This document shows, piece after piece, positions 22,968 to 64,000 of a stretch of DNA of 64,000 nt (the first letter of the stretch is position 1; every line of letters starts with the position of its first letter). Both the position numbers and the translations under genes were made by a program. This DNA is from Escherichia coli (GTDB taxonomy: Bacteria; Pseudomonadota; Gammaproteobacteria; Enterobacterales; Enterobacteriaceae): NCBI RefSeq assembly GCF_003334335.1, contig NZ_QOWQ01000018.1. The stretch is one strand, 5' to 3'. The notes under the pieces were generated by a model. It saw only the letters and a list, made by a program, of their open reading frames with translations. It searched no databases and had not been told where the DNA came from.

Positions 22968-23768
<801 letters not shown>

Positions 23769-23795
23769 TTAGTGACAAAGTGCATATGTCTTCTT

Positions 23796-23830
<35 letters not shown>

Positions 23831-23921
23831 AGTGCTCGCAAAATCGATAAATTGCGATTGCCCCCATAGACCCGATAAACTTGCGCATCGGGCAACTTAT
23901 ACTTGTCATGTATCCTTTCAA

Positions 23922-24677
23922 TTAACTCATCGACAGCAGTTGGTTGGCACGGCCTGCGTTATCATCGACGCTGCTGATCACCTTCATCTGCATTTCAAAA
24001 CGCCGCGCGCTGGCAATCATGTCGCTCATTGCCGCAACGGCATTGACGTTACTGCCTTCCAGAACCCCCGACATCACACGCAAGGTTGGATCTGCCTGCA
24101 GTACCGGCCCACGCGTGGCCTGGGTTTCTGCGCTTAAACGAAAAATGCCGTCGTCACCGCGCTGCACTTCGCTGCCCGTGGCTTTCACCAGTTTAAGACG
24201 CCCTACTGGCGCAACCGTATTTGCCGGATCGCCCGGATTGAGCGCCGAGATTGTGCCATCGGCAGCAATAGTGATTTCCGCCCCTTCCGGCACAGCAATT
24301 GGCCCAGCCTCGCCTATCACCGGATGCCCCTGAATTGTCAGTTGCCCGGTGGGATCAACCTGAATGCTGCCATTACGCGTATACCCTTCGCTGCCGTCAG
24401 CGGTCTGCACGGCCAGCCAGCCATCCTGCTGCAACGCGACGTCCAGCGGGCGCGAGGTGTAATCCATTTTGCCGGGCGTCATATCTGCGCCCGGCGTTGA
24501 CGCCGTGACCAACGTGCGCGTGGGCAGAGAAAGCCCTTCCACTGGCACCGCGCGTAAAGCATTCAACTGCGCGCGAAAACCGGGCGTTGAGGCATTGGCC
24601 AGATTACTGGCGGTTACCGCCTGTTGATTCAGTGTCTGGCTGGCTGCTCCCATCGCGGTATAAATTGCGTGATCCAT
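23922..24677 (-). CDS. flgF: Flagellar proximal rod protein
   Basis: 251 aa; rod-protein N-terminal motif; gene order. Confidence 0.94.
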   Translation of the reverse strand: MDHAIYTAMGAASQTLNQQAVTASNLANASTPGFRAQLNALRAVPVEGLSLPTRTLVTASTPGADMTPGKMDYTSRPLDVALQQDGWLAVQTADGSEGYTRNGSIQVDPTGQLTIQGHPVIGEAGPIAVPEGAEITIAADGTISALNPGDPANTVAPVGRLKLVKATGSEVQRGDDGIFRLSAETQATRGPVLQADPTLRVMSGVLEGSNVNAVAAMSDMIASARRFEMQMKVISSVDDNAGRANQLLSMS

Positions 24678-40003: not shown

Positions 40004-40579
40004 ATGAAAAAAAGCCTGCTTGGTTTAACCTTCGCGTCCCTGATGTTCTCTGCCGGTTCAGCGGTTGCCGCCGATTACAAAATTGACAAAGAAGGTCAGC
40101 ACGCCTTTGTTAATTTCCGCATCCAGCACCTTGGCTATAGCTGGTTATACGGCACCTTTAAAGATTTCGACGGTACTTTTACCTTTGACGAAAAAAATCC
40201 GGCTGCCGATAAAGTGAATGTGACAATTAACACCACCAGCGTCGATACTAATCACGCCGAACGCGATAAACATCTTCGCAGTGCAGATTTCCTCAATACC
40301 GCAAAATATCCACAGGCAACATTCACCTCCACCAGCGTGAAGAAAGACGGTGACGAACTGGATATTACCGGCGATCTGACGCTGAATGGCGTAACCAAAC
40401 CCGTCACGCTGGAAGCGAAATTAATTGGTCAGGGCGACGACCCATGGGGTGGTAAACGTGCAGGCTTCGAGGCCGAAGGCAAAATTAAGCTCAAGGACTT
40501 CAATATCAAGACAGATTTAGGTCCAGCTTCTCAGGAAGTGGATCTGATTATTTCAGTGGAAGGCGTACAGCAGAAGTAA
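40004..40579 (+). CDS. yceI: Periplasmic polyisoprenoid-binding protein YceI
   Basis: 191 aa with signal peptide; 4-nt after yceJ. Confidence 0.92.
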
Positions 40580-40591
40580 GCGTGAAATGTT

Positions 40592-40612
40592 GCCGGATGG
40601 CACGCATCCGGC
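40592..40612. terminator. REP-like hairpin / bidirectional terminator between convergent yceI and yceA
   Basis: gccggatg-gcacg-catccggc perfect stem-loop. Confidence 0.5.
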
Positions 40613-40620
40613 AATGATAT

Positions 40621-41673
40621 TTATTCTGTTGGATCAGGAATGCACAGTGTTGTATTCAGACGTCCACGAGACTTATTAAAGATCTTATTGCCATTTTCAC
40701 GTCCTGCCCGACGGCGTCGCTGTTCTTCTGGCGGTAACGCGCTTTCTTCGCAGCAAATCTCACTACAACAACCTTTGTATTTTTCCGCGCATACTGGACA
40801 CTGAATAAACAGCAGGTGGCAGCCATCATTTTTACAGTTGGTATGGCTGTCGCACGGCGCGCCGCACTGGTGGCAATGCGCGATAATCTCATCCGATATA
40901 CGTTCGCCCATCCGCTCGTCAAAAACAAAATTTTTGCCAATAAAACGCACCGGCAAGCCCTGCTCGCGCGCCTTACGGGCGTATTCAATAATTCCGCCCT
41001 CGATATGCCAGACTTTGTTGAATCCGTTATGTTTCATCCAGGCACTGGCCTTTTCACAACGAATGCCGCCGGTGCAGTACATGACGATTTTTTTATCTTT
41101 ATGTGCCTGCATCATCTCGACTGCTTTTGGCAGCTGCTCACGGAAGGTATCTGCCGGAATTTCGAGCGCGTTTTCAAAGTGCCCCACTTCATACTCATAG
41201 TGGTTACGCATGTCGATAAATAGTGCATCGGGATCGTCAAGCATGGCGTTCACTTCCGCCGCTTGCAGATACTCACCAACATTGCTGGCATCAAAGTGAG
41301 GATCGTCAATACCGTCGGCAACAATGCGATCGCGTACCTTCATGCGCAGTACCCAGAAGGATTTCCCGTCATCATCCAACGCGATATTCAGGCGTAAACC
41401 CTCTAAAGCCGGGTCGAAGGCATAGAGCTGCGCGCGAAATGTTTCAACATTGCTCGCAGGTACGCTGATTTGCGCGTTAATGCCCTCATGCGCCAGATAC
41501 ACTCGCCCAAAAACATTCAGCGCGGTAAACAGCTGATATAAAGCGTCACGGGTCGCCTTAGGATCGGCGATGTGGAAATACTTGTAAAACGAAATGGTGG
41601 TTCGCGGTTCGCTCTCAGCCAACATTTTGGCTTTTAGCGCGTCGTTGGAAATGCGGTTGTGTAACACTGGCAT
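40621..41673 (-). CDS. trhO: Rhodanese-domain tRNA U34 hydroxylase TrhO (YceA)
   Basis: ORF 40621..41727; start at ATG 41673 ([32 protein letters not shown]..., 350 aa); Cys-rich C-terminus. Confidence 0.9.
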
Positions 41674-41897
41674 GGTGTACGGTTCCTGCGAGATGGGAAA
41701 GTAAAAATCCGCGGCATGATATAGCAATTATCGATAATTAACATCCACACATTTTACGCTACATTTGCGCATTAAAAATTATTTGTTATTTACAAGCGCG
41801 GCAATTTCGCCCAGTCTTCAGCCACAAATTTTGGTTGCGGGCGAAAAAATGCGACAATACATACAATTGCCCGAATAGGTTGAAAAACAGGATTGAT

Positions 41898-42818
41898 ATG
41901 ACGAATCTACCCAAGTTCTCCACCGCACTGCTTCATCCGCGTTATTGGTTAACCTGGTTGGGTATTGGCGTACTTTGGTTAGTCGTGCAATTGCCCTACC
42001 CGGTTATCTACCGCCTCGGTTGTGGATTAGGAAAACTGGCGTTACGTTTTATGAAACGACGCGCAAAAATTGTGCATCGCAACCTGGAACTGTGCTTCCC
42101 GGAAATGAGCGAACAAGAACGCCGTAAAATGGTGGTGAAGAATTTCGAATCCGTTGGCATGGGCCTGATGGAAACCGGCATGGCGTGGTTCTGGCCGGAC
42201 CGCCGAATCGCCCGCTGGACGGAAGTGATCGGCATGGAACACATTCGTGACGTGCAGGCGCAAAAACGCGGCATCCTGTTAGTTGGCATCCATTTTCTGA
42301 CACTGGAGCTGGGTGCGCGGCAGTTTGGTATGCAGGAACCGGGTATTGGCGTTTATCGCCCGAACGATAATCCACTGATTGACTGGCTACAAACCTGGGG
42401 CCGTTTGCGCTCAAATAAATCGATGCTCGACCGCAAAGATTTAAAAGGCATGATTAAAGCCCTGAAAAAAGGCGAAGTGGTCTGGTACGCACCGGATCAT
42501 GATTACGGCCCGCGCTCAAGCGTTTTCGTCCCGTTGTTTGCCGTTGAGCAGGCTGCGACCACGACCGGAACCTGGATGCTGGCACGGATGTCCGGCGCAT
42601 GTCTGGTGCCCTTCGTTCCACGCCGTAAGCCAGATGGCAAAGGGTATCAATTGATTATGCTGCCGCCAGAGTGTTCTCCGCCACTGGATGATGCCGAAAC
42701 TACCGCCGCGTGGATGAACAAAGTGGTCGAAAAATGCATCATGATGGCACCAGAGCAGTATATGTGGTTACACCGTCGCTTTAAAACACGCCCGGAAGGC
42801 GTTCCTTCACGCTATTAA
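41898..42818 (+). CDS. lpxL: Lipid A biosynthesis lauroyltransferase (HtrB)
   Basis: ORF 41835..42818; start at ATG 41898 ([24 protein letters not shown]..., 306 aa). Confidence 0.94.
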
Positions 42819-42825
42819 ATCTCCC

Positions 42826-42856
42826 ATGCCGGATGCTTCAGAATGGCATCCGGCAT
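42826..42856. terminator. REP-like hairpin / terminator after lpxL
   Basis: atgccggatgc-ttcagaatg-gcatccggcat stem-loop 8 nt after the lpxL stop. Confidence 0.5.
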
Positions 42857-42989
42857 TACCACAGCAAATCCCCCTGATTTAGCGATAAAAGCTCTCTGGA
42901 TTGCGCCCCCTGGAAGTCGGGCGCATAATTAGTGTGCTTATCTTTTCTTCTTATGTTCACCGCGCCTGGCGCACCAACAGCGGATTGCT

Positions 42990-44216
42990 ATGTCACCCTG
43001 TGAAAATGACACCCCTATAAACTGGAAACGAAACCTGATCGTCGCCTGGCTAGGCTGTTTTCTTACCGGTGCCGCCTTCAGTCTGGTAATGCCCTTCTTA
43101 CCCCTCTACGTTGAGCAGCTTGGCGTTACCGGTCACTCCGCCCTGAATATGTGGTCCGGTATTGTCTTCAGCATTACATTTTTATTTTCGGCCATCGCCT
43201 CACCGTTTTGGGGTGGACTCGCCGACCGTAAAGGCCGAAAACTCATGCTATTACGCTCTGCCCTCGGCATGGGCATCGTGATGGTGTTGATGGGGCTGGC
43301 ACAAAATATCTGGCAGTTTTTGATCCTGCGGGCGCTTCTTGGGTTACTTGGCGGATTTGTCCCCAACGCTAATGCTCTTATCGCCACACAAGTACCGCGT
43401 AATAAAAGCGGCTGGGCGCTGGGTACGCTCTCCACAGGCGGCGTTAGTGGTGCGTTGCTCGGCCCAATGGCTGGCGGCCTGCTCGCCGATAGCTACGGCT
43501 TACGTCCGGTATTCTTTATTACCGCCAGTGTGCTCATACTCTGCTTTTTCGTCACCCTGTTTTGCATCAGAGAAAAATTCCAGCCGGTCAGCAAAAAAGA
43601 GATGCTGCACATGCGGGAAGTGGTGACATCACTTAAAAACCCGAAACTGGTACTCAGCCTGTTTGTCACTACGTTAATCATCCAGGTGGCGACGGGCTCA
43701 ATTGCCCCCATTCTGACGCTGTATGTCCGCGAACTGGCGGGTAACGTCAGTAACGTCGCCTTTATCAGTGGCATGATCGCCTCGGTGCCAGGCGTGGCGG
43801 CTCTGCTAAGTGCACCACGACTCGGCAAACTTGGCGATCGAATCGGACCCGAAAAGATCCTGATTACAGCGCTGATCTTTTCTGTACTGCTGTTGATCCC
43901 AATGTCTTACGTTCAGACGCCATTGCAACTTGGGATTTTACGTTTTTTGCTCGGTGCCGCCGATGGTGCACTACTCCCCGCCGTACAGACACTGTTGGTT
44001 TACAACTCGAGCAACCAGATCGCCGGGCGTATCTTCAGCTATAACCAATCGTTTCGTGATATTGGCAACGTTACCGGACCATTGATGGGAGCAGCGATTT
44101 CAGCGAACTACGGTTTCAGAGCGGTATTTCTCGTCACCGCTGGCGTAGTGTTATTCAACGCAGTCTATTCATGGAACAGTCTACGTCGTCGTCGAATACC
44201 CCAGGTATCGAACTGA
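42990..44216 (+). CDS. mdtG: MFS multidrug efflux transporter
   Basis: 408 aa [30 protein letters not shown]...; matches MdtG. Confidence 0.94.
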
Positions 44217-57717: not shown

Positions 57718-58184
57718 TCACGGTGCGCCGTCTTTGCACTACGCGCCGCCAGCCACAGGCCACTGTTTTTCATTGCGTAACCAAATATCAGCCCAAGCGC
57801 CAGCGAAGGTAACACCAGTTTCCAGTCACCCTGCCCGGCAAACGTCGCGCATGCGCCTATAAACGTCCCCGGAACAAATGAAAGCAGCAGCTGTTTGGCC
57901 TGAATACACATCAGAAACGCGACAATACCGGTTATGACATAACCGAGAATTTCCAGATGTGGTGCCAGTGCACTACCGTAAATAATGACCATCGCCCACA
58001 CCACGCCACTAAGCAGGGTTGCAGCGGAGATCGCCAGCCCTTTCAGCCCACCTTGCGGGCAGGCAAAGTAGGCCGTACAGCCCAGGAAGCCCGCCCAGCT
58101 TAGTAAGCCCAGGGAAACAGCCACCCATCCCCAGATACCGGAGAGAATGCCTGTTGTGATTGCAATAGAGAGAAGTATGTTCAT
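57693..58184 (-). CDS. ycdZ: Inner-membrane protein YcdZ (DUF1097)
   Basis: ORF 57693..58232; start at ATG 58184 (MNILLSIAITTGILSGIWGW..., 163 aa). Confidence 0.88.
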   Translation of the reverse strand: MNILLSIAITTGILSGIWGWVAVSLGLLSWAGFLGCTAYFACPQGGLKGLAISAATLLSGVVWAMVIIYGSALAPHLEILGYVITGIVAFLMCIQAKQLLLSFVPGTFIGACATFAGQGDWKLVLPSLALGLIFGYAMKNSGLWLAARSAKTAHREQEIKNKA

Positions 58185-58285
58185 GCCGCGCATGATAGCA
58201 GAAAACGCGGCCATGAATGAGATCGAGCACACATTTTATGCAACAACAAATTATCCGTTGCAGTTATGAGTGACGTAGATCACAC

Positions 58286-58840
58286 TTATTCTTCAGAATC
58301 TTCTTCCAGCTCGTCCCACATTGCACTAATGGCATCGCGGGTTAGCGGTGCCATGGTGCGCCAGAAAGGCGTGGTTGCATGGGCCTCCACTTTGCCAAGG
58401 AACGCACCACACCAGGGTAACAGATACTCACTGAACAGTGTTTCCAGTGCTTCGCTCTCATCTTCCGTTGACTGATCTTCCAGCCAGGAAGCTGCGAGCA
58501 GCAATGTGCCGATGTGATCGGCTGGCGTATCCGCTAATGGCATCCCTCGCTCAGAAAGAAAAGCGCGCACTTCCGCTTCCGTCGCGCCCTCAACCCATGC
58601 GCTACGATATGGCGGCACAGCACATTCATCGCCGATAAACAACGCATTGTAATCGGCAGAGACTTGCGTCATATCACAGCTTTTCTGCAAACGTGTCAGC
58701 AACTCATCCTGCTCCAGTGGCCAGTTCGCAGCCAGTTTCCCCTCACGAATCAGGGTAAACAGCGGCACCAGTAAAGGATCTTGTGGTTGGCGGTAATAGA
58801 GCGAACCCAGCACACGACAGAGGATAGAAAACTCGTTCAT
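58286..58840 (-). CDS. ycdY: TorD-family chaperone YcdY
   Basis: 184 aa MNEFSILCRVLGSLYYRQPQDPLLVPLF...; matches YcdY. Confidence 0.92.
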   Translation of the reverse strand: MNEFSILCRVLGSLYYRQPQDPLLVPLFTLIREGKLAANWPLEQDELLTRLQKSCDMTQVSADYNALFIGDECAVPPYRSAWVEGATEAEVRAFLSERGMPLADTPADHIGTLLLAASWLEDQSTEDESEALETLFSEYLLPWCGAFLGKVEAHATTPFWRTMAPLTRDAISAMWDELEEDSEE

Positions 58841-58863
58841 TAATATATTTCCATTACTAGTAA

Positions 58864-59601
58864 TTAAAGGTCTGCAAATTCCGCAATCGGTGCCATACCG
58901 CGAGATTCAAGGAAGTTCAGTAAGCGGCGCGGAGAAACATTCAAAATGCGCTCTGGCGGAAAATCTACCGCGTCGAGGATTTTAAGACACTCTTCAAATT
59001 CCCCCATGGTAAACGCGGTGTGAGAATCCGAGCCTAATGCCACCCAACCTCCAGCATCACGTACCGCTGCGGCTACCTCACGACAGTTGTCTTCACTGCC
59101 CTTACGTGAGTGTAAAAATGAGGAATTATTGATTTCCAGCGCCACCTGATGTTTCGCGGCTGCTTCAGCAACGGCTTTCACATCTATTTCATATTTGGGA
59201 TTTCCGGGATGGCTTATTATATGCACATTGCCGCTGGCGATAGTGGCGATCATCGCTTGTGTATTGGTCGCTTTGTCATGTGGCGCAAAAACCGGCTCAT
59301 GAAAACCGGCAATAATTAGATCCAGCGAGTCAAACATTTTACCGCTGCAGTCAATTTCACCATCAACATTTTTAATGTTAGCTTCGATGCCGCGCAGGAT
59401 CCCTACCCCATCAACCACTCGCGGCCAGATACGCATGTTAATGAAGTGCCAGTGATGCGGCGCATCTTCCATATCCGGGCCATGATCGGTGATCGCAAAA
59501 AGTTTAATGCCCTTTTGTTTGGCCTGGGCAATGTAATCACTTAATGTGCTATATGCATGTGTGCTGGCAACGGTATGCATATGAAGGTCGACGGGATACA
59601 T
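58864..59601 (-). CDS. ycdX: PHP-domain zinc phosphatase YcdX
   Basis: 245 aa [23 protein letters not shown]..., PHP metal-binding His motif. Confidence 0.94.
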
Positions 59602-59655
59602 AACTCTCTCCTGTATTCAATTCCCGCCAAGGATAGCAGGAATCCTGATGCTTTA

Positions 59656-60633
<978 letters not shown>

Positions 60634-60817
60634 TTATCATTATGATCTACAAAGGCCACCAGCATAACAAATCCGTGGTCGGTGGCAAAAAAAGCAGATT
60701 TCGCTTATTAAAACCACACATTGATTGAAGTTTGAATAAACGCGCGATTTTTTCAAAAAGTTTGTTGACCTCAGGTCATGATTTCCCTAAATTAGCGCCC
60801 GTTCCAGCAAGACAGGA

Positions 60818-60905
60818 ACGACAATTTGGTGAGGTGTCCGAGTGGCTGAAGGAGCACGCCTGGAAAGTGTGTATACGGCAACGTATCGGGGGTTCGAATC
60901 CCCCC
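60818..60905 (+). tRNA. serX: tRNA-Ser (anticodon GGA)
   Basis: 88 nt GGTGAGGTGTCCGAGTGGCTGAAGGAGCACGCCTGGAAAGTG...GGTTCGAATCCCCCCCTCACCGCCA: D-arm GAGTGG, anticodon loop CCTGGAAAG, long variable arm, T-arm GGTTCGAATCC, encoded CCA. Confidence 0.95.
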
Positions 60906-60911
60906 CTCACC

Positions 60912-60945
60912 GCCAGATTACAAGCGCATGTTATTGTTTAACATG
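60912..60945 (+). terminator. Rho-independent terminator of serX
   Basis: Hairpin aagcgcatgtt-attgttt-aacatgcgctt followed by a T-run, 7 nt after the tRNA 3' end. Confidence 0.8.
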
Positions 60946-61064
60946 CGCTTTTTTATTTATCCTTCCAGACAGTATGCCACCGGGTATGCCATCTGAAACC
61001 GGTTTGTATGAGCCGCGATCACATCTTATCGGACAATTTCCGATCTTTAAGCATACTGGCAAAG

Positions 61065-61910
61065 CTATACTGACAGCATGTCAGGATAGTGTTCTGCAAT
61101 AATATCATTCAGTCGCTCAACCAGTTCCGGTTTTCTGAACGTGATATACGCGGAGCCCTTCTTAAAGTATCTGATACTGAACATCTCATCTTCATAGTCC
61201 TCTTTCCCCTGAACAGACTGGATGTGCTCATCCAGATGAATGGTGATGTTTTCCCGATTGTCGGGGATCGGTTTGCCGCTGAACAGGTGCAGCATTCTTT
61301 CCAGGTCGGTAAGTCGATCTGCCTGTTGCCCGCTGTTCAGATGAAATCCCCACCGGTCCCACCTCACCAGATTGTTGACGATAATTTTACTGCCAAATTT
61401 ACAGGGTGAGTTGGTTTTGTAATTCCAGCTCAGCACTCTGAAGACGTTGATCACTCCTCGCTCAAACACGTCATCCTTATTCTGGTGCAGTTGCTCAAAT
61501 GTGCTCCAAATGTTCGCTTCACTGATTTCCGGAAAGTTATCGTACTCCAGTGAGCGGTACCATGTATCACGGGCCTGCGCATCCATTAATGACAGCATCC
61601 CGGAACGTTGCATCAGGCCACGCCAGATTTCGCGATCGAGATTGCGGGTGATGGCTTTCATTGCGGTTTCCGGTTTCTCCATGAGCCAGCAGCCGCAGCG
61701 AAAATCCTGTTTCATGGCCCAGTCCCGGGCGGTTTTACCGCCAATGCTTTCCGTCAGTACCGAGATTTCAGCCAGTTGCCGGATAAGTGTGTCGATTTGC
61801 AGCAGCGCACTCTTTCGTACAGCCAGAATGTGGCGGATACTGGTTGAGCAGATAACGTCCGTATGTCCGTTGACCAGTTCCGGGCGGGAGATTGTGATAT
61901 CTGACATCAT
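61065..61910 (-). CDS. Uncharacterised 281-aa island protein (possibly DUF4942-like)
   Basis: Intact ORF MMSDITISRPELVNGHTDV... with Shine-Dalgarno aaggaaaaacg before the ATG; no recognisable catalytic motif; family assignment from memory of island annotations, not searched. Confidence 0.6.
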   Translation of the reverse strand: MMSDITISRPELVNGHTDVICSTSIRHILAVRKSALLQIDTLIRQLAEISVLTESIGGKTARDWAMKQDFRCGCWLMEKPETAMKAITRNLDREIWRGLMQRSGMLSLMDAQARDTWYRSLEYDNFPEISEANIWSTFEQLHQNKDDVFERGVINVFRVLSWNYKTNSPCKFGSKIIVNNLVRWDRWGFHLNSGQQADRLTDLERMLHLFSGKPIPDNRENITIHLDEHIQSVQGKEDYEDEMFSIRYFKKGSAYITFRKPELVERLNDIIAEHYPDMLSV

Positions 61911-61991
61911 CGTTTTTCCTTTTGGTTTATAAACGAAAACGCCAGCCGTATTCAGGCTGGCGTCAGTGGAATGAAGTCTGGTGAGTAAGAC

Positions 61992-62189
61992 TCACCTGTT
62001 CTGTTGCAGAAGCTGCTGTTGGCGCAGGGTACGGATATCTTCCCTGGCCTGTTCAATGCAGGGCAGCAGTGCTGCTGAATCCGTTTTATCCTCATCGTTG
62101 TCGAAGATAATCCCTGATTCGCAGTCAATATTGTCCTGCAGCCACGCAATCAGAATATCCAGCGCCGTTTCTGTGGTTAATGATTTCAT
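61992..62189 (-). CDS. Small 65-aa island protein (possibly DUF957-like)
   Basis: ORF MKSLTTETALDILIAWLQDNIDCESGIIFDNDEDKTDSAALLPCIEQAREDIRTLRQQQLLQQNR, 16 nt downstream of the YeeW-like stop; acidic, helical; unsearched. Confidence 0.45.
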   Translation of the reverse strand: MKSLTTETALDILIAWLQDNIDCESGIIFDNDEDKTDSAALLPCIEQAREDIRTLRQQQLLQQNR

Positions 62190-62205
62190 GTTGTGAATTT
62201 ACGGG

Positions 62206-62694
62206 TTACCAGTCGAAAGTGGGGAACCCCGGCAGACATTCTGCGCCGGCGTCCAGATGAATGAGACTGACGCCATAACGCCGGGTGAGAGTGACGACCA
62301 GACGACGGAACGTTCTTGACAGGCCCAGGCGTTTAAGCCGCAGAACCGGGTACGACCATGCATCGGTACGTAACAGATAGCCGCTGCCTGTAAAATGAAT
62401 CCATTCTGTTTCGCCGTCGTCATTAGTCTGGTGTGACAGCGAGTACAGCCAGGCGTTGTCCGTTTCCGTGATATGTGCGGTACTGCAACGTATGCCGGTA
62501 AGGGTTGTTAACGGTGGTGGTGTACTGGTTGACTGCTGGTCGGATTTATCGACCACGCGGAGTGAATAACCGTTTTCAGAGACCTTGTTAATCAGTTCAG
62601 CGAGATTAACACCATCGACGTCAACGACAATGCGCCCCATGTTCAGCGCCTGCATGTTAATGCTGTCGGCTTCCGGCGTCAGGGAAAGGTTCAT
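62206..62694 (-). CDS. YeeW-like protein (DUF5983-type), full length
   Basis: 162-aa [57 protein letters not shown]...; its ATG overlaps the CbtA stop as ATGA; position matches yeeW downstream of cbtA. Confidence 0.6.
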
Positions 62695-63074
62695 TGTTTC
62701 GCCTCCTCCGGATGCTTGCCCAGGGTAATGTTATTTACCATTCTGTAATTGTCCCGGGTCATCAGGCCGGTCGCCCTGCGAGCCCGGAGAATATCAATGC
62801 TGTTGATTAACTGAGACGACGGGGCTCCTGCGCTGAATCCCGGCTGGTCAGTTCGTACCAGCACGTATTTTTCAACGAGAAAGTTCACCGCGTCACACAG
62901 TGAAATCCCTGCCTCAATATGCTGCTCAATCACACGTTCATCAGCGAACGGTGTGTCATTCAACGTAAGGCCATAGTGCTGGTCCAGCAGTCGGGTGAGC
63001 AGTGTCTGCCAGATTTCAACCGGAGACGGGCAGCGCGATGCCGCCCGTACGTGTGTGTCGGGTAATGTTTTCAT
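62691..63074 (-). CDS. cbtA: CbtA-family toxin of a type IV toxin-antitoxin system (YeeV/YkfI/YpjF-like)
   Basis: Start at ATG 63074 gives 127 aa [70 protein letters not shown]..., near-identical to remembered YeeV-family toxins. Confidence 0.9.
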
Positions 63075-63154
63075 ACTGAAGATTTTCCTGATATGCAGAT
63101 ATAAGAAATGGAAAAGTGGCGTGGCTGGTGAAAGCACCAGGCCGGAGCAGAAGG

Positions 63155-63535
63155 CTATTCCGGAGGGTTACTTTCCGTTTCGGTCGCAGGATAAACAGCC
63201 AGATAAACGTAACCACAGGAGCCGAGGGTGTCGGCATCGCAGGTCAGCCCTTTCGCATACAGCGTGACGGTATGCTGATGCCGGGGATTCAGTTCACCGC
63301 TGGTGAGCATGAGTTCCAGTTGTTTCATCAGCAGTGGAAAAGCCTGGTCCAGATGGTATGCATCCGCATTGCTGAACCGGCCTCTGATACCGGCGCGGTC
63401 TGCAAGGTAATGCAACCGGTTACCCTCCTGCACCAGACGTGCCCCGAAACAGGGCGTCACGGTGCAGGGCAGCCCCCACCAGGGGCGGTCTTTGTTGTCG
63501 TCGGGAAGCGTTGTCCCGGGGAGTGTGTCTGACAC
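63155..63535 (-). CDS. cbeA: CbeA-family antitoxin of a type IV toxin-antitoxin system (YeeU/YafW/YfjZ-like)
   Basis: Probable GTG start at 63535 gives [54 protein letters not shown]... matching the remembered YeeU N-terminus ([13 protein letters not shown]...). Confidence 0.88.
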
Positions 63536-63545
63536 GATAAAATCC

Positions 63546-63923
63546 TCACAGAAAATCGGTGAATGATAGTTTAACGATGACGGGGCAGCCGGCGCGCAGA
63601 CCGGCTTCGGTGAAGGTATATTCGTTGATGAGAAGGGCCTCATCCACAGCGGCGTCTGAGGTCAGCCAGTCGTACTCGTTTTCCAGTTGACGGTACAACC
63701 AGAAGGCCAGGTCGCGCAGGGCTTCGCTGACTGCGGCTTCCGCATCGGTTGTCATAGCCTGACCAGTCGGACTGTTCCGGGTGACGGTGATATCCATGCA
63801 GTACGGATGGCAGTAACGTCCCCGGTGGTGGATTTCAGCCTGCAGTTGCCAGAAGTTACGCTTCTGCACCGCCTGCAGGGCATCCGCGATACGATGAAGC
63901 TCACGGTCCTGCGGGGCATACAC
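63546..63923 (-). CDS. Hypothetical protein upstream of cbeA (yeeT/ykfH position); start uncertain
   Basis: 125-codon ORF opening with GTG at 63923 (an in-frame stop lies 9 nt upstream); internal ATGs would give 83- or 68-aa products; stop is 8 nt before the cbeA start. Sequence not recognised. Confidence 0.4.
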   Translation of the reverse strand: MYAPQDRELHRIADALQAVQKRNFWQLQAEIHHRGRYCHPYCMDITVTRNSPTGQAMTTDAEAAVSEALRDLAFWLYRQLENEYDWLTSDAAVDEALLINEYTFTEAGLRAGCPVIVKLSFTDFL

Positions 63924-64000
63924 CCATAAGCGCTAACTTAAGGGTTGAACCATCTGAAGAATGCGACGCCTCGGTGCCTCGTTAAGACGATGCCTCGCGT

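Follow-up and report, generated by a model that had tools for sequence, protein, structure and literature searches.

The tRNA-proximal end of a probable SRL-PAI-family integrative island at serX in Escherichia coli

The window analysed here is a stretch of 64,000 nt of Escherichia coli DNA, and its positions 60916-64000 very probably form the tRNA-proximal side, attL, of an integrative island of the family that comprises the SRL PAI, OI-43/48 (TAI, SpLE1) and PAI-CFT073-serX. The observation of an island at serX is real and supports the original prediction; it is also already known and ordinary. The family is well studied, and in pathogens its cargo consists of virulence, iron uptake, defence or resistance functions (the SRL PAI, the EHEC tellurite/adherence island and UPEC PAI-serX). 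Significance is slight beyond correct annotation, in which the core/accessory boundary is now placed to the base and the terminator after serX is credited to the island.

When the window was compared in full with K-12 MG1655 by local blastn, positions 1-60919 aligned colinearly and without gaps, in two blocks with 99.98% identity, as expected from the predicted K-12 core gene order up to serX. Positions 60920-64000 are the only stretch of the window that lacks K-12 MG1655 coverage, and the claim that only accessory DNA follows serX is therefore right relative to K-12. Alignment places the true divergence at 60916, directly 3′ of the serX CCA; the four matching bases past 60915 are due to chance (GATTAC in the island, TATTTA in the core), and the start proposed earlier, 60906, falls 10 nt within the tRNA gene. 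The serX gene of the window is that of K-12 and is invariant across K-12-like, O157 and EC5 serX and SCU-104 serW, and the region of the promoter-like site upstream of it is identical in K-12. In the composition profile a G+C signature of an island is not seen, the segment ranging from 49 to 57% and being indistinguishable from the core. The features of the junction and the adjoining att arm are as follows.

60765..60793, + strand: predicted promoter-like site TTGACC-17-TAAATT upstream of serX, in core DNA (consensus scan)
60828..60915, + strand: serX, intact tRNA-Ser gene, anticodon GGA (ARAGORN; Rfam tRNA, 53.8 bits)
60902..60915, + strand: att core CCCCCTCACCGCCA, 14 bp, formed by the 3′-terminal nucleotides of serX; crossover site at attL (recurs at distal ends)
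60922..60950, + strand: island-borne intrinsic terminator, a hairpin with a 12-bp stem and a T-run (dG -17.5 kcal/mol, z -6.9)
60972..60991, + strand: direct GTATGCCA repeat pair, candidate arm-type integrase sites in the P′ arm of attL (motif comparison)
61027-61036, + strand: TATCGGACAA, common to the attR arm (shared-word comparison of the arms)
61051-61059, + strand: inverted CCAGTATGC, common to the attR arm (shared-word comparison of the arms)

The hairpin that follows serX had been taken for the native serX terminator; positions 60922-60950 are instead island DNA that replaces it. The same hairpin is present 3′ of serW in SCU-104 and B2C and is missing from the K-12 empty site. The native terminator, gagctcgtacgaaagtacgggctttttttt, is missing on this side of the island in the window and is located beyond attR in O157 and 10034940-2. 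An Rfam search of 58000-64000 with a permissive E-value matched the tRNA alone, and none of the RtT-like repeats known from the K-12 empty site were found on this island side.

A 25-nt repeat of the serX 3′ end had been proposed as the mark of the distal boundary, yet the real repeat is 14 bp long and is revealed by shorter words only; the 25-mer was absent, beyond the tRNA itself, from the window and from the loci searched to that point. The 14-bp core recurs beside the integrase at the distal end of the islands of O157 (locus L007, 27767-27780), 10034940-2 (locus L013, 26927-26940) and CFT073 (locus L017, 3029-3042), where the far-end order is integrase, 14-bp core and native serX terminator. 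In these three islands the integrase is a P4-type protein of 400 aa with Arm-DNA-bind_3, Phage_int_M and Phage_integrase domains, 99.3-99.8% identical between them. The expected distal tyrosine integrase and partial tRNA repeat are thus borne out in homologous serX islands, that of O157 having been read in O157:H7 YB14-1. Within its 64 kb the window has no integrase and holds the attL copy of the core. The same attL sequence occurs 3′ of serX in EC5, MEI4BO-21, 10034940-2, O157 and CFT073, and 3′ of serW in SCU-104 and B2C. For OI-43/48, perfect 14-bp direct repeats TGGCGGTGAGGGGG have been described on both flanks, identical to those of the SRL PAI (PMC3064760).

In the proposed mechanism, a P4-type tyrosine integrase encoded at the opposite end of the island would recombine the chromosomal serX or serW gene with attP, whose core equals the final 14 nt of these genes. 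Integration would regenerate the tRNA gene with a new terminator supplied by the island, and attR, on the far side of the integrase, would consist of the displaced native 14-mer, the native terminator and the downstream DNA. Integrase-dependent excision and integration are drawn here from the literature, while the junction, the 14-bp core, the genes, the layout and the integrase and repeat of the homologues were read in the present analysis. The SRL PAI leaves serX by int-dependent excision, can also use serW, and has fec and aspR-dcuA among its cargo (PMC7545054). The OI-43/48 integrase is 99% identical to that of the SRL PAI, and precise excision of OI-43/48 occurs at approximately 1e-3 to 1e-4 per cell (PMC3064760).

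The end module after serX lies on the minus strand and is composed of genes for DUF4942, DUF957, DUF5983, CbtA and CbeA/YeeU proteins and an ORF cut by IS421, arranged as listed below.

61065..61907, - strand: DUF4942-domain protein, 280 aa, the terminal island gene (Pfam PF13708, E 5.5e-65)
61992..62189, - strand: small protein, 65 aa, DUF957 in RefSeq relatives (ORF; WP_000839253.1)
62206..62694, - strand: DUF5983 family protein, 162 aa (Pfam DUF5983_N 1.1e-29, DUF5983 1.3e-20)
62691..63074, - strand: CbtA-family toxin of a type IV toxin-antitoxin system, 127 aa (Pfam CbtA_toxin, E 1.8e-57, full length)
63155..63535, - strand: CbeA/YeeU-family antitoxin, 126 aa (Pfam CbeA_antitoxin, E 1.2e-52, whole model)
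63546..63925, - strand: 3′ portion of an ORF of 227 aa that IS421 interrupts (interrupted versus intact copies)
63914..63925, no strand: GGGCATACACCC, one copy of the 12-bp duplication of the IS421 target site (12-bp overlap between the interrupted copy in L001 and the intact one in L003)
63926..64000, no strand: first 75 bp of IS421 (IS4 family), with its 22-bp terminal inverted repeat ATAAGCGCTAACTTAAGGGTTG at the start (100% identity with the IS421 copies annotated in L001)

The end-module genes are recognised by DUF-type and toxin-antitoxin models of Pfam alone, and the six ORFs had no matches in NCBIfam or PADLOC. The DUF4942 gene corresponds to RefSeq WP_001431817.1 in relatives; PHROG connects its product weakly with a family of DNA methyltransferases, and no PDB relative of the product was found by sequence. 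For the 65-aa ORF, Pfam did not report DUF957 (concatenated query) despite the RefSeq name. The fragment of the 227-aa ORF has no Pfam match and falls into phrog_5162, of unknown function; the ORF is intact at 3369-4052 of locus L003 and is annotated in relatives as “hypothetical” or DUF8835.

Antitoxin and toxin genes follow each other in this order on the same strand, separated by 80 bp, and both domains are full-length. The toxin is 63% identical to K-12 YkfI and the antitoxin 63% identical to K-12 YafW, and the antitoxin also matches the YeeU structures PDB 2H28/2INW (E ~1e-76). These likenesses, together with the Pfam assignments to DUF4942, DUF5983, CbtA_toxin and CbeA_antitoxin, agree with the earlier description of the cargo as CP4-like. 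The toxin mechanism is known from published work on K-12, where CbtA blocks the polymerisation of FtsZ and MreB, and CbeA neutralises CbtA via the cytoskeleton without binding the toxin (PMC5624674, PMC5371832). By homology, the allele in the window would act as the K-12 pair does, and the pair probably disfavours loss of the island, a stabilising role.

The motifs next to attL are candidates for sites of the recombination machinery. Among the approximately 0.6 Mb of fetched loci, the GTATGCCA pair occurs only beside attL or int/attR of these islands and in one orientation, and the two att arms have 14 8-mers in common versus 0.9 expected from shuffles. Both arms carry GTATGCCA pairs, TATCGGACAA and the inverted half-site, and these are kept despite the unrelated cargo of UPEC PAI-serX, islands of the EHEC OI-48 type and the island in the window. 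Judged from sequence, the GTATGCCA pairs are candidate arm-type binding sites of the integrase, and TATCGGACAA and the inverted CCAGTATGC may each be a putative integrase, Xis/AlpA or IHF site. It is possible, with the chances falling slightly short of even for both parts taken jointly, that the arm motifs are so far undescribed arm sites of the SRL-PAI-family integrase and that the IS421-marked allele reflects recent hopping between serX and serW or transfer from strain to strain.

Comparison with named systems places the segment among serX islands. By its published description, the SRL PAI resembles the family of the window in its serX/serW site, 14-bp direct repeat and P4-type integrase (PMC3064760, PMC7545054). 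Its hallmark cargo (fecIRABCDE, aspartate racemase with dcuA, and Ag43) is present in the EC5 island, and its SRL resistance locus was not seen in the relatives examined. OI-48/OI-43 (TAI, SpLE1) of O157:H7 has the same layout, running from serX through DUF4942, DUF957, DUF5983, CbtA and YeeU to the integrase, the 14-bp repeat, the native terminator and ycdU, and the att arms of OI-48-type O157 islands bear the same paired GTATGCCA motifs. However, the OI-48-type O157 island end aligns with 60916-63697 at only 87.6% DNA identity, the O157 island body carries ter, iha and ure, none of which were seen in the closest relatives of the window, and IS421 is not inserted at this position. PAI-CFT073-serX shares with the window the tRNA and the gene order at the serX end, has the 14-bp core at both island ends, and encodes an integrase 99.3-99.5% identical to those of O157 and 10034940-2. 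It differs in being 113 kb long and in carrying S/F1C pili, salmochelin and Ag43, and its end module contains IS200 and ISEc10 insertions and a frameshifted DUF4942 gene. PAI-CFT073-serX has been listed with the serX islands of UTI89, RS218 and IHE3034 (PMC7545054).

The likeness previously drawn to CP4-6 of K-12 holds for the layout, as there too the intact tRNA gene, thrW, is followed by the toxin-antitoxin end (ykfN, then ykfI/yafW). Onward, CP4-6 has genes for DUF987, RadC, antirestriction, DUF932 and a GTPase, and its integrase gene, intF, is located at the far end and reads inward. Unlike the island in the window, CP4-6 uses another tRNA and another integrase, its toxin and antitoxin share 63% protein and approximately 67-69% DNA identity with those of the window, only the ykfN pseudogene region is left of its DUF4942 gene, and genes for DUF957 and DUF5983 are absent between toxin and tRNA.

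The serX junction of the window is present in 1143 of 5426 complete E. coli genomes (~21%), counted as genomes in which a single place covers 80% or more of 58000-64000, and the empty site, a contiguous ghrA-serX-ycdU, is found in at least 1390 (at least 26%), K-12 being empty. Occupation of the locus in essentially all E. coli, which the original prediction had named as evidence against an island, is thus not observed. Matches to the end module occur in 5126 of the 5426 genomes, at a median of 4 places per genome. The suggestion that the island body is the place to look for strain-specific functions does not extend to the 3 kb inside the window, which belong to the most conserved, most widely repeated and least strain-specific part of such islands; it stands for the variable cargo beyond 64 kb, where near-identical backbones differ completely.

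The present state of the island may be approached through EC5 and MEI4BO-21, the two nearest complete-genome relatives, with backbones 99.9-100% identical. The EC5 island extends for approximately 61 kb from serX to an IS1 that abuts pgaA, with ycdU-dgcT gone, and that of MEI4BO-21 extends for approximately 68 kb and ends at an ISKpn26 adjoining a ymdE fragment. Neither the integrase nor the 14-bp repeat was found in these two islands, because IS-associated deletions removed the distal end, and for this reason the copy in the window may be immobile. Whether the island in this genome is an immobilised remnant, having lost integrase and attR by IS-mediated deletion and undergoing no excision, is to our judgement an evenly balanced matter, and such a state is compatible with the best explanation of the island's origin. 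That EC5 and MEI4BO-21 lost their distal ends by different events argues for it, as does the occurrence of the int-attR-ycdU junction in 470 genomes versus 1143 with this attL junction, although attR junctions that continue into RtT-like repeats or other flanks are not included in the 470. Against it stands 10034940-2, the only complete genome in which this cargo, with an identical IS421 insertion, is found at serX, and whose 74-kb island keeps an intact integrase and attR. Island bodies, moreover, differ even among the closest backbones, so that relatives are poor predictors for this genome. Among the complete genomes of the collection, none matched both the backbone and the IS421 junction of the window.

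It is very unlikely that the segment, as the name CP4 might suggest, derives from a genuine phage and belongs to a cryptic P4-like prophage rather than to a non-phage genomic island. The P4-type architecture of the integrase, the labelling of the analogous CP4-6 as a cryptic prophage in the K-12 annotation and the matches of several proteins to PHROG families would fit a phage origin, but those PHROG families are of unknown function, and no annotated phage structural or lysis genes are present in the window or in the islands of approximately 60-115 kb in relatives. The cargo of these relatives consists of Ag43 adhesins, fec/iro iron uptake, restriction-modification with DarTG, ter, ure and many IS elements. 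The alternative that the segment is part of an ancestral core and was deleted by K-12 and others, to which the module matches in 5126 of 5426 genomes and the core-like G+C content lend themselves, is effectively refuted. In empty sites of many lineages, serX is immediately followed by the native terminator and RtT-like repeats. In occupied sites the 14 bp are duplicated and the native terminator has moved past attR, the identical element is found at serW in strains with an empty serX, and published measurements show excision that brings back the empty site (PMC3064760).

The last 75 bp of the window (63926-64000), previously counted as island cargo, are the end of an IS421 copy. Its perfect 22-bp inverted repeat and the 12-bp duplication were defined on L001 versus the intact gene of L003, the window holding one IS421 end, and comparison of interrupted with intact copies places the break in the 227-aa ORF after 63925. 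The length of IS421 in SCU-104 is 1337 bp. The island allele with one IS421 insertion occupies serW or serX depending on the strain, serX and serW being identical tRNA genes.

When the whole window is compared with K-12 MG1655 by local blastn, positions 1-60919 align in two colinear blocks at 99.98% identity with no internal gaps and only 60920-64000 stays uncovered, which confirms the original prediction that the K-12 core extends up to serX and that the tail is the window's only accessory DNA. Over 24 kb the core part also matches several phylogroup-A-like genomes at 100% identity (ST361 isolates and the soil isolate MEI4BO-21). By these identities the strain is a very close relative of K-12 over this region, the difference being essentially the occupied serX site.

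The sole tRNA of the window is a tRNA-Ser(GGA) at 60828-60915 on the plus strand (ARAGORN on the whole window, with which Rfam agrees). In alignments it is identical through the terminal CCA (60915) in the window, a K-12-like empty site, O157:H7, EC5 and the serW locus of SCU-104. Beyond the CCA the K-12 type reads TATTTAAAGAAGAGCTCGTACGAAAGTACGGGCTTTTTTTT, whereas the window and all island-bearing aligned loci read GATTACAAGCGCATGTTATTGTTTAACATGCGCTTTTTT. The junction thus follows the CCA at 60915, and the island start previously placed at 60906 lies 10 nt inside the tRNA. A hairpin with a T-run at 60922-60950 (12-bp stem, dG -17.5 kcal/mol, z -6.9) had been taken for the native serX terminator; since the island loci share the sequence after the CCA and K-12 differs, this reading is not tenable, and the terminator is supplied by the island and moves with it to serW in other strains. 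Crossover here took place at the tRNA 3′ end, regenerating the tRNA and replacing its terminator with the island's own.

The distal end can be seen in homologues. O157:H7 YB14-1 has the same gene order after serX as the window, and about 77 kb on its island ends with a minus-strand tyrosine recombinase gene, beyond which lie the final 14 nt of serX, CCCCCTCACCGCCA, and then the native terminator of serX and ycdU. In CFT073, a DUF4942 gene adjoins serX at one end and an integrase gene and the 14-mer adjoin dgcT at the other, while strain 10034940-2 has both ends as in O157:H7 YB14-1, with the 14-bp copies 74.3 kb apart. The integrases of O157, CFT073 and 10034940-2 are 99.3-99.8% identical proteins of P4-type architecture (Arm-DNA-bind_3, Phage_int_M, Phage_integrase). 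These three homologues have the distal integrase and partial tRNA repeat that had been anticipated, with a repeat of 14 bp and not of 25 nt. In EDL933, OI-43 and OI-48 occupy serW and serX, each bounded by perfect direct repeats of 14 bp, TGGCGGTGAGGGGG, which the Shigella SRL PAI has in identical form; the integrase shares 99% identity with that of the SRL PAI, and the islands excise precisely, with a frequency per cell of about 1e-3 to 1e-4 (PMC3064760). TGGCGGTGAGGGGG is the reverse complement of the CCCCCTCACCGCCA core. Excision and integration at serX and serW are int-dependent (PMC3064760, PMC7545054), and a 2020 review gives serX and serW as the sites of the SRL PAI, names fec and aspR-dcuA as its cargo, and lists serX islands for CFT073, UTI89, RS218, IHE3034 and UM146 (PMC7545054). 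SRL-PAI-like cargo is carried by the island of EC5, which is among the window's closest relatives (fecIRABCDE, an aspartate racemase with a C4-dicarboxylate transporter, and Ag43). Shared gene order, the distal integrase and 14-mer in homologues, and the match to the literature therefore identify the tail as the attL (tRNA-proximal) end of a member of the known serX/serW island family (SRL PAI, OI-43/OI-48, CFT073 type); this family is well described, so the element is already known. That the island is a true prophage is unlikely, as none of the 60-115 kb relatives has annotated phage structural genes. In the island bodies of relatives, a DarT/DarG toxin-antitoxin pair is inserted into a type I restriction-modification operon, separating hsdS from hsdR (hsdM-hsdS-darT-darG-hsdR), and an SprT/M48-like metalloprotease gene comes next (SCU-104 locus 36973-43095; L002 19170-27810; L011 12942-21561).

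Genes within 60916-64000, all on the minus strand, were defined from ORF calls, Pfam and RefSeq annotation of identical copies, and are listed here with the adjoining insertion sequence:

61065-61907, minus strand, DUF4942 protein (Pfam/RefSeq)
61992-62189, minus strand, 65-aa protein annotated DUF957 (ORF, RefSeq annotation)
62206-62694, minus strand, DUF5983 protein (Pfam/RefSeq)
62691-63074, minus strand, CbtA-family toxin (Pfam/RefSeq)
63155-63535, minus strand, CbeA/YeeU-family antitoxin (Pfam/RefSeq)
63546-63925, minus strand, C-terminal part of a 227-aa ORF cut by IS421 (ORF call)
63914-63925, the copy of the IS421 target duplication in the window
63926-64000, first 75 bp of IS421, filling the window's end

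No NCBIfam or PADLOC model matches any of the six island proteins. Two solved structures of YeeU, 2H28 and 2INW, match the antitoxin (E about 1e-76), and identity to the CP4-6 counterparts in K-12 is 63% both for the toxin (YkfI) and for the antitoxin (YafW). CbtA inhibits FtsZ and MreB, and CbeA is a type IV antitoxin (PMC5624674, PMC5371832); the pair may help island retention. In the K-12 annotation of CP4-6, thrW (+) is followed by ykfN, ykfI (toxin), yafW (antitoxin), DUF987, RadC, yafX and onward, and intF is encoded at the opposite end on the minus strand, which confirms the layout given earlier for CP4-6, with the toxin-antitoxin end beside the intact tRNA. The two islands share this architecture yet are distant in sequence, with DNA identity (~67-69%) only in the toxin-antitoxin genes. 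The DUF4942 gene is the terminal gene adjoining attL in all these serX/serW islands; residues 85-278 of its product match a PHROG family annotated as DNA methyltransferase (E 1e-16), and the PDB contains no relative of the protein by sequence. Between the DUF957 and DUF4942 genes, at 61938-61964 (-), lies a strong terminator-like hairpin (10-bp stem, 7 G-C pairs), which suggests a DUF4942 transcript separate from that of the toxin-antitoxin, DUF5983 and DUF957 genes.

Comparison of the interrupted SCU-104 copy of the 227-aa ORF with the intact EC5 copy shows IS421 (IS4 family) to be 1337 bp long, with terminal inverted repeats of 22 bp that match perfectly; the target duplication is 12 bp, GGGCATACACCC. 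The assignment of 60906-64000 to island cargo thus holds up to IS421, the window's end (63926-64000) being the insertion sequence itself. IS421 occupies the identical position in the same ORF, with the same duplication, in serW islands (SCU-104, ETEC B2C) and serX islands (10034940-2, the window), the sites being window 63914-64000, SCU-104 locus 23009-24370, L002 3640-5000 and L015 5500-6860. This suggests that one IS-marked island allele moved between the two identical tRNA genes, or between strains.

Among 5,426 complete E. coli genomes, the identical IS421 insertion is found in at least 5. The window junction at serX (at least 80% of 58000-64000 in one place) is present in 1143 and hence is not essentially universal at this locus, and the int-attR-ycdU junction in 470. 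A contiguous ghrA-serX-ycdU site occurs in at least 1390, a minimum since repeats downstream of serX vary in copy number. The 3-kb module is by no means specific to the strain: some match exists in 5126 genomes (median 4 places per genome), and 2675 contain a near-full-length copy somewhere. Ancestral DNA deleted in K-12 is excluded by the att duplication and displaced native terminator at occupied sites, by the many lineages with intact empty sites, and by the same element at serW in strains with an empty serX.

The window's backbone and IS421 junction together have no match among the complete genomes of the collection. EC5 and MEI4BO-21, with 99.9-100% identical backbones, match only up to 63925, and their island bodies diverge from each other from 3.7 kb into the island. 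In neither is the distal end retained: in EC5 (ST361-type) an IS1 abutting pgaA ends the island and ycdU-dgcT is deleted (L004 13201-13992), and in MEI4BO-21 an ISKpn26 beside a ymdE fragment ends it with dgcT retained (L014 19052-20354). Neither island has an integrase or a second 14-mer, and the integrase/attR end was lost independently in the two. Among the complete genomes, 10034940-2 alone (backbone 99.4% identical) combines serX, the window's cargo and this IS421 insertion, and its integrase and attR are intact. The window's copy has about equal chances of being complete or truncated, and its present mobility, judged from relatives, is a matter of mixed evidence.

At 57 bp past the core there is a direct GTATGCCA repeat pair (60972-60979 and 60984-60991). 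In O157, 10034940-2 and CFT073 the attR side has the same pair in the same orientation, immediately outside the start codon of the integrase; in ~0.6 Mb of loci examined the pair is confined to these att flanks. Both arms also have TATCGGACAA and inverted CCAGTATGC, and share 14 8-mers versus 0.9 expected in shuffles. Because the integrase has an arm-binding domain, these motifs are plausible candidates for arm-type integrase sites, in which case the attL side in the window would still be recombination-competent. These paired arm repeats are not known to have been described. The GTATGCCA pairs, TATCGGACAA and the inverted half-site are kept on both arms of serX/serW islands with unrelated cargo (window 60972-61059; O157 locus 27628-27692; 10034940-2 locus 26788-26807; CFT073 locus 3162-3181).

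Downstream of serX, K-12 has three 181-bp tandem repeats that PGAP annotates as RtT sRNA (L005 7229-7859, a K-12-like empty site; also L008 1023-1579). The final 19 nt of every repeat correspond to the serX 3′ end and include the 14-bp att core, so that the empty site has four potential cores. No RtT repeat is found on the window's side of the island. Island-bearing 10034940-2 has two beyond attR (L013 27109-27303); integration there therefore used the tRNA's own core copy.
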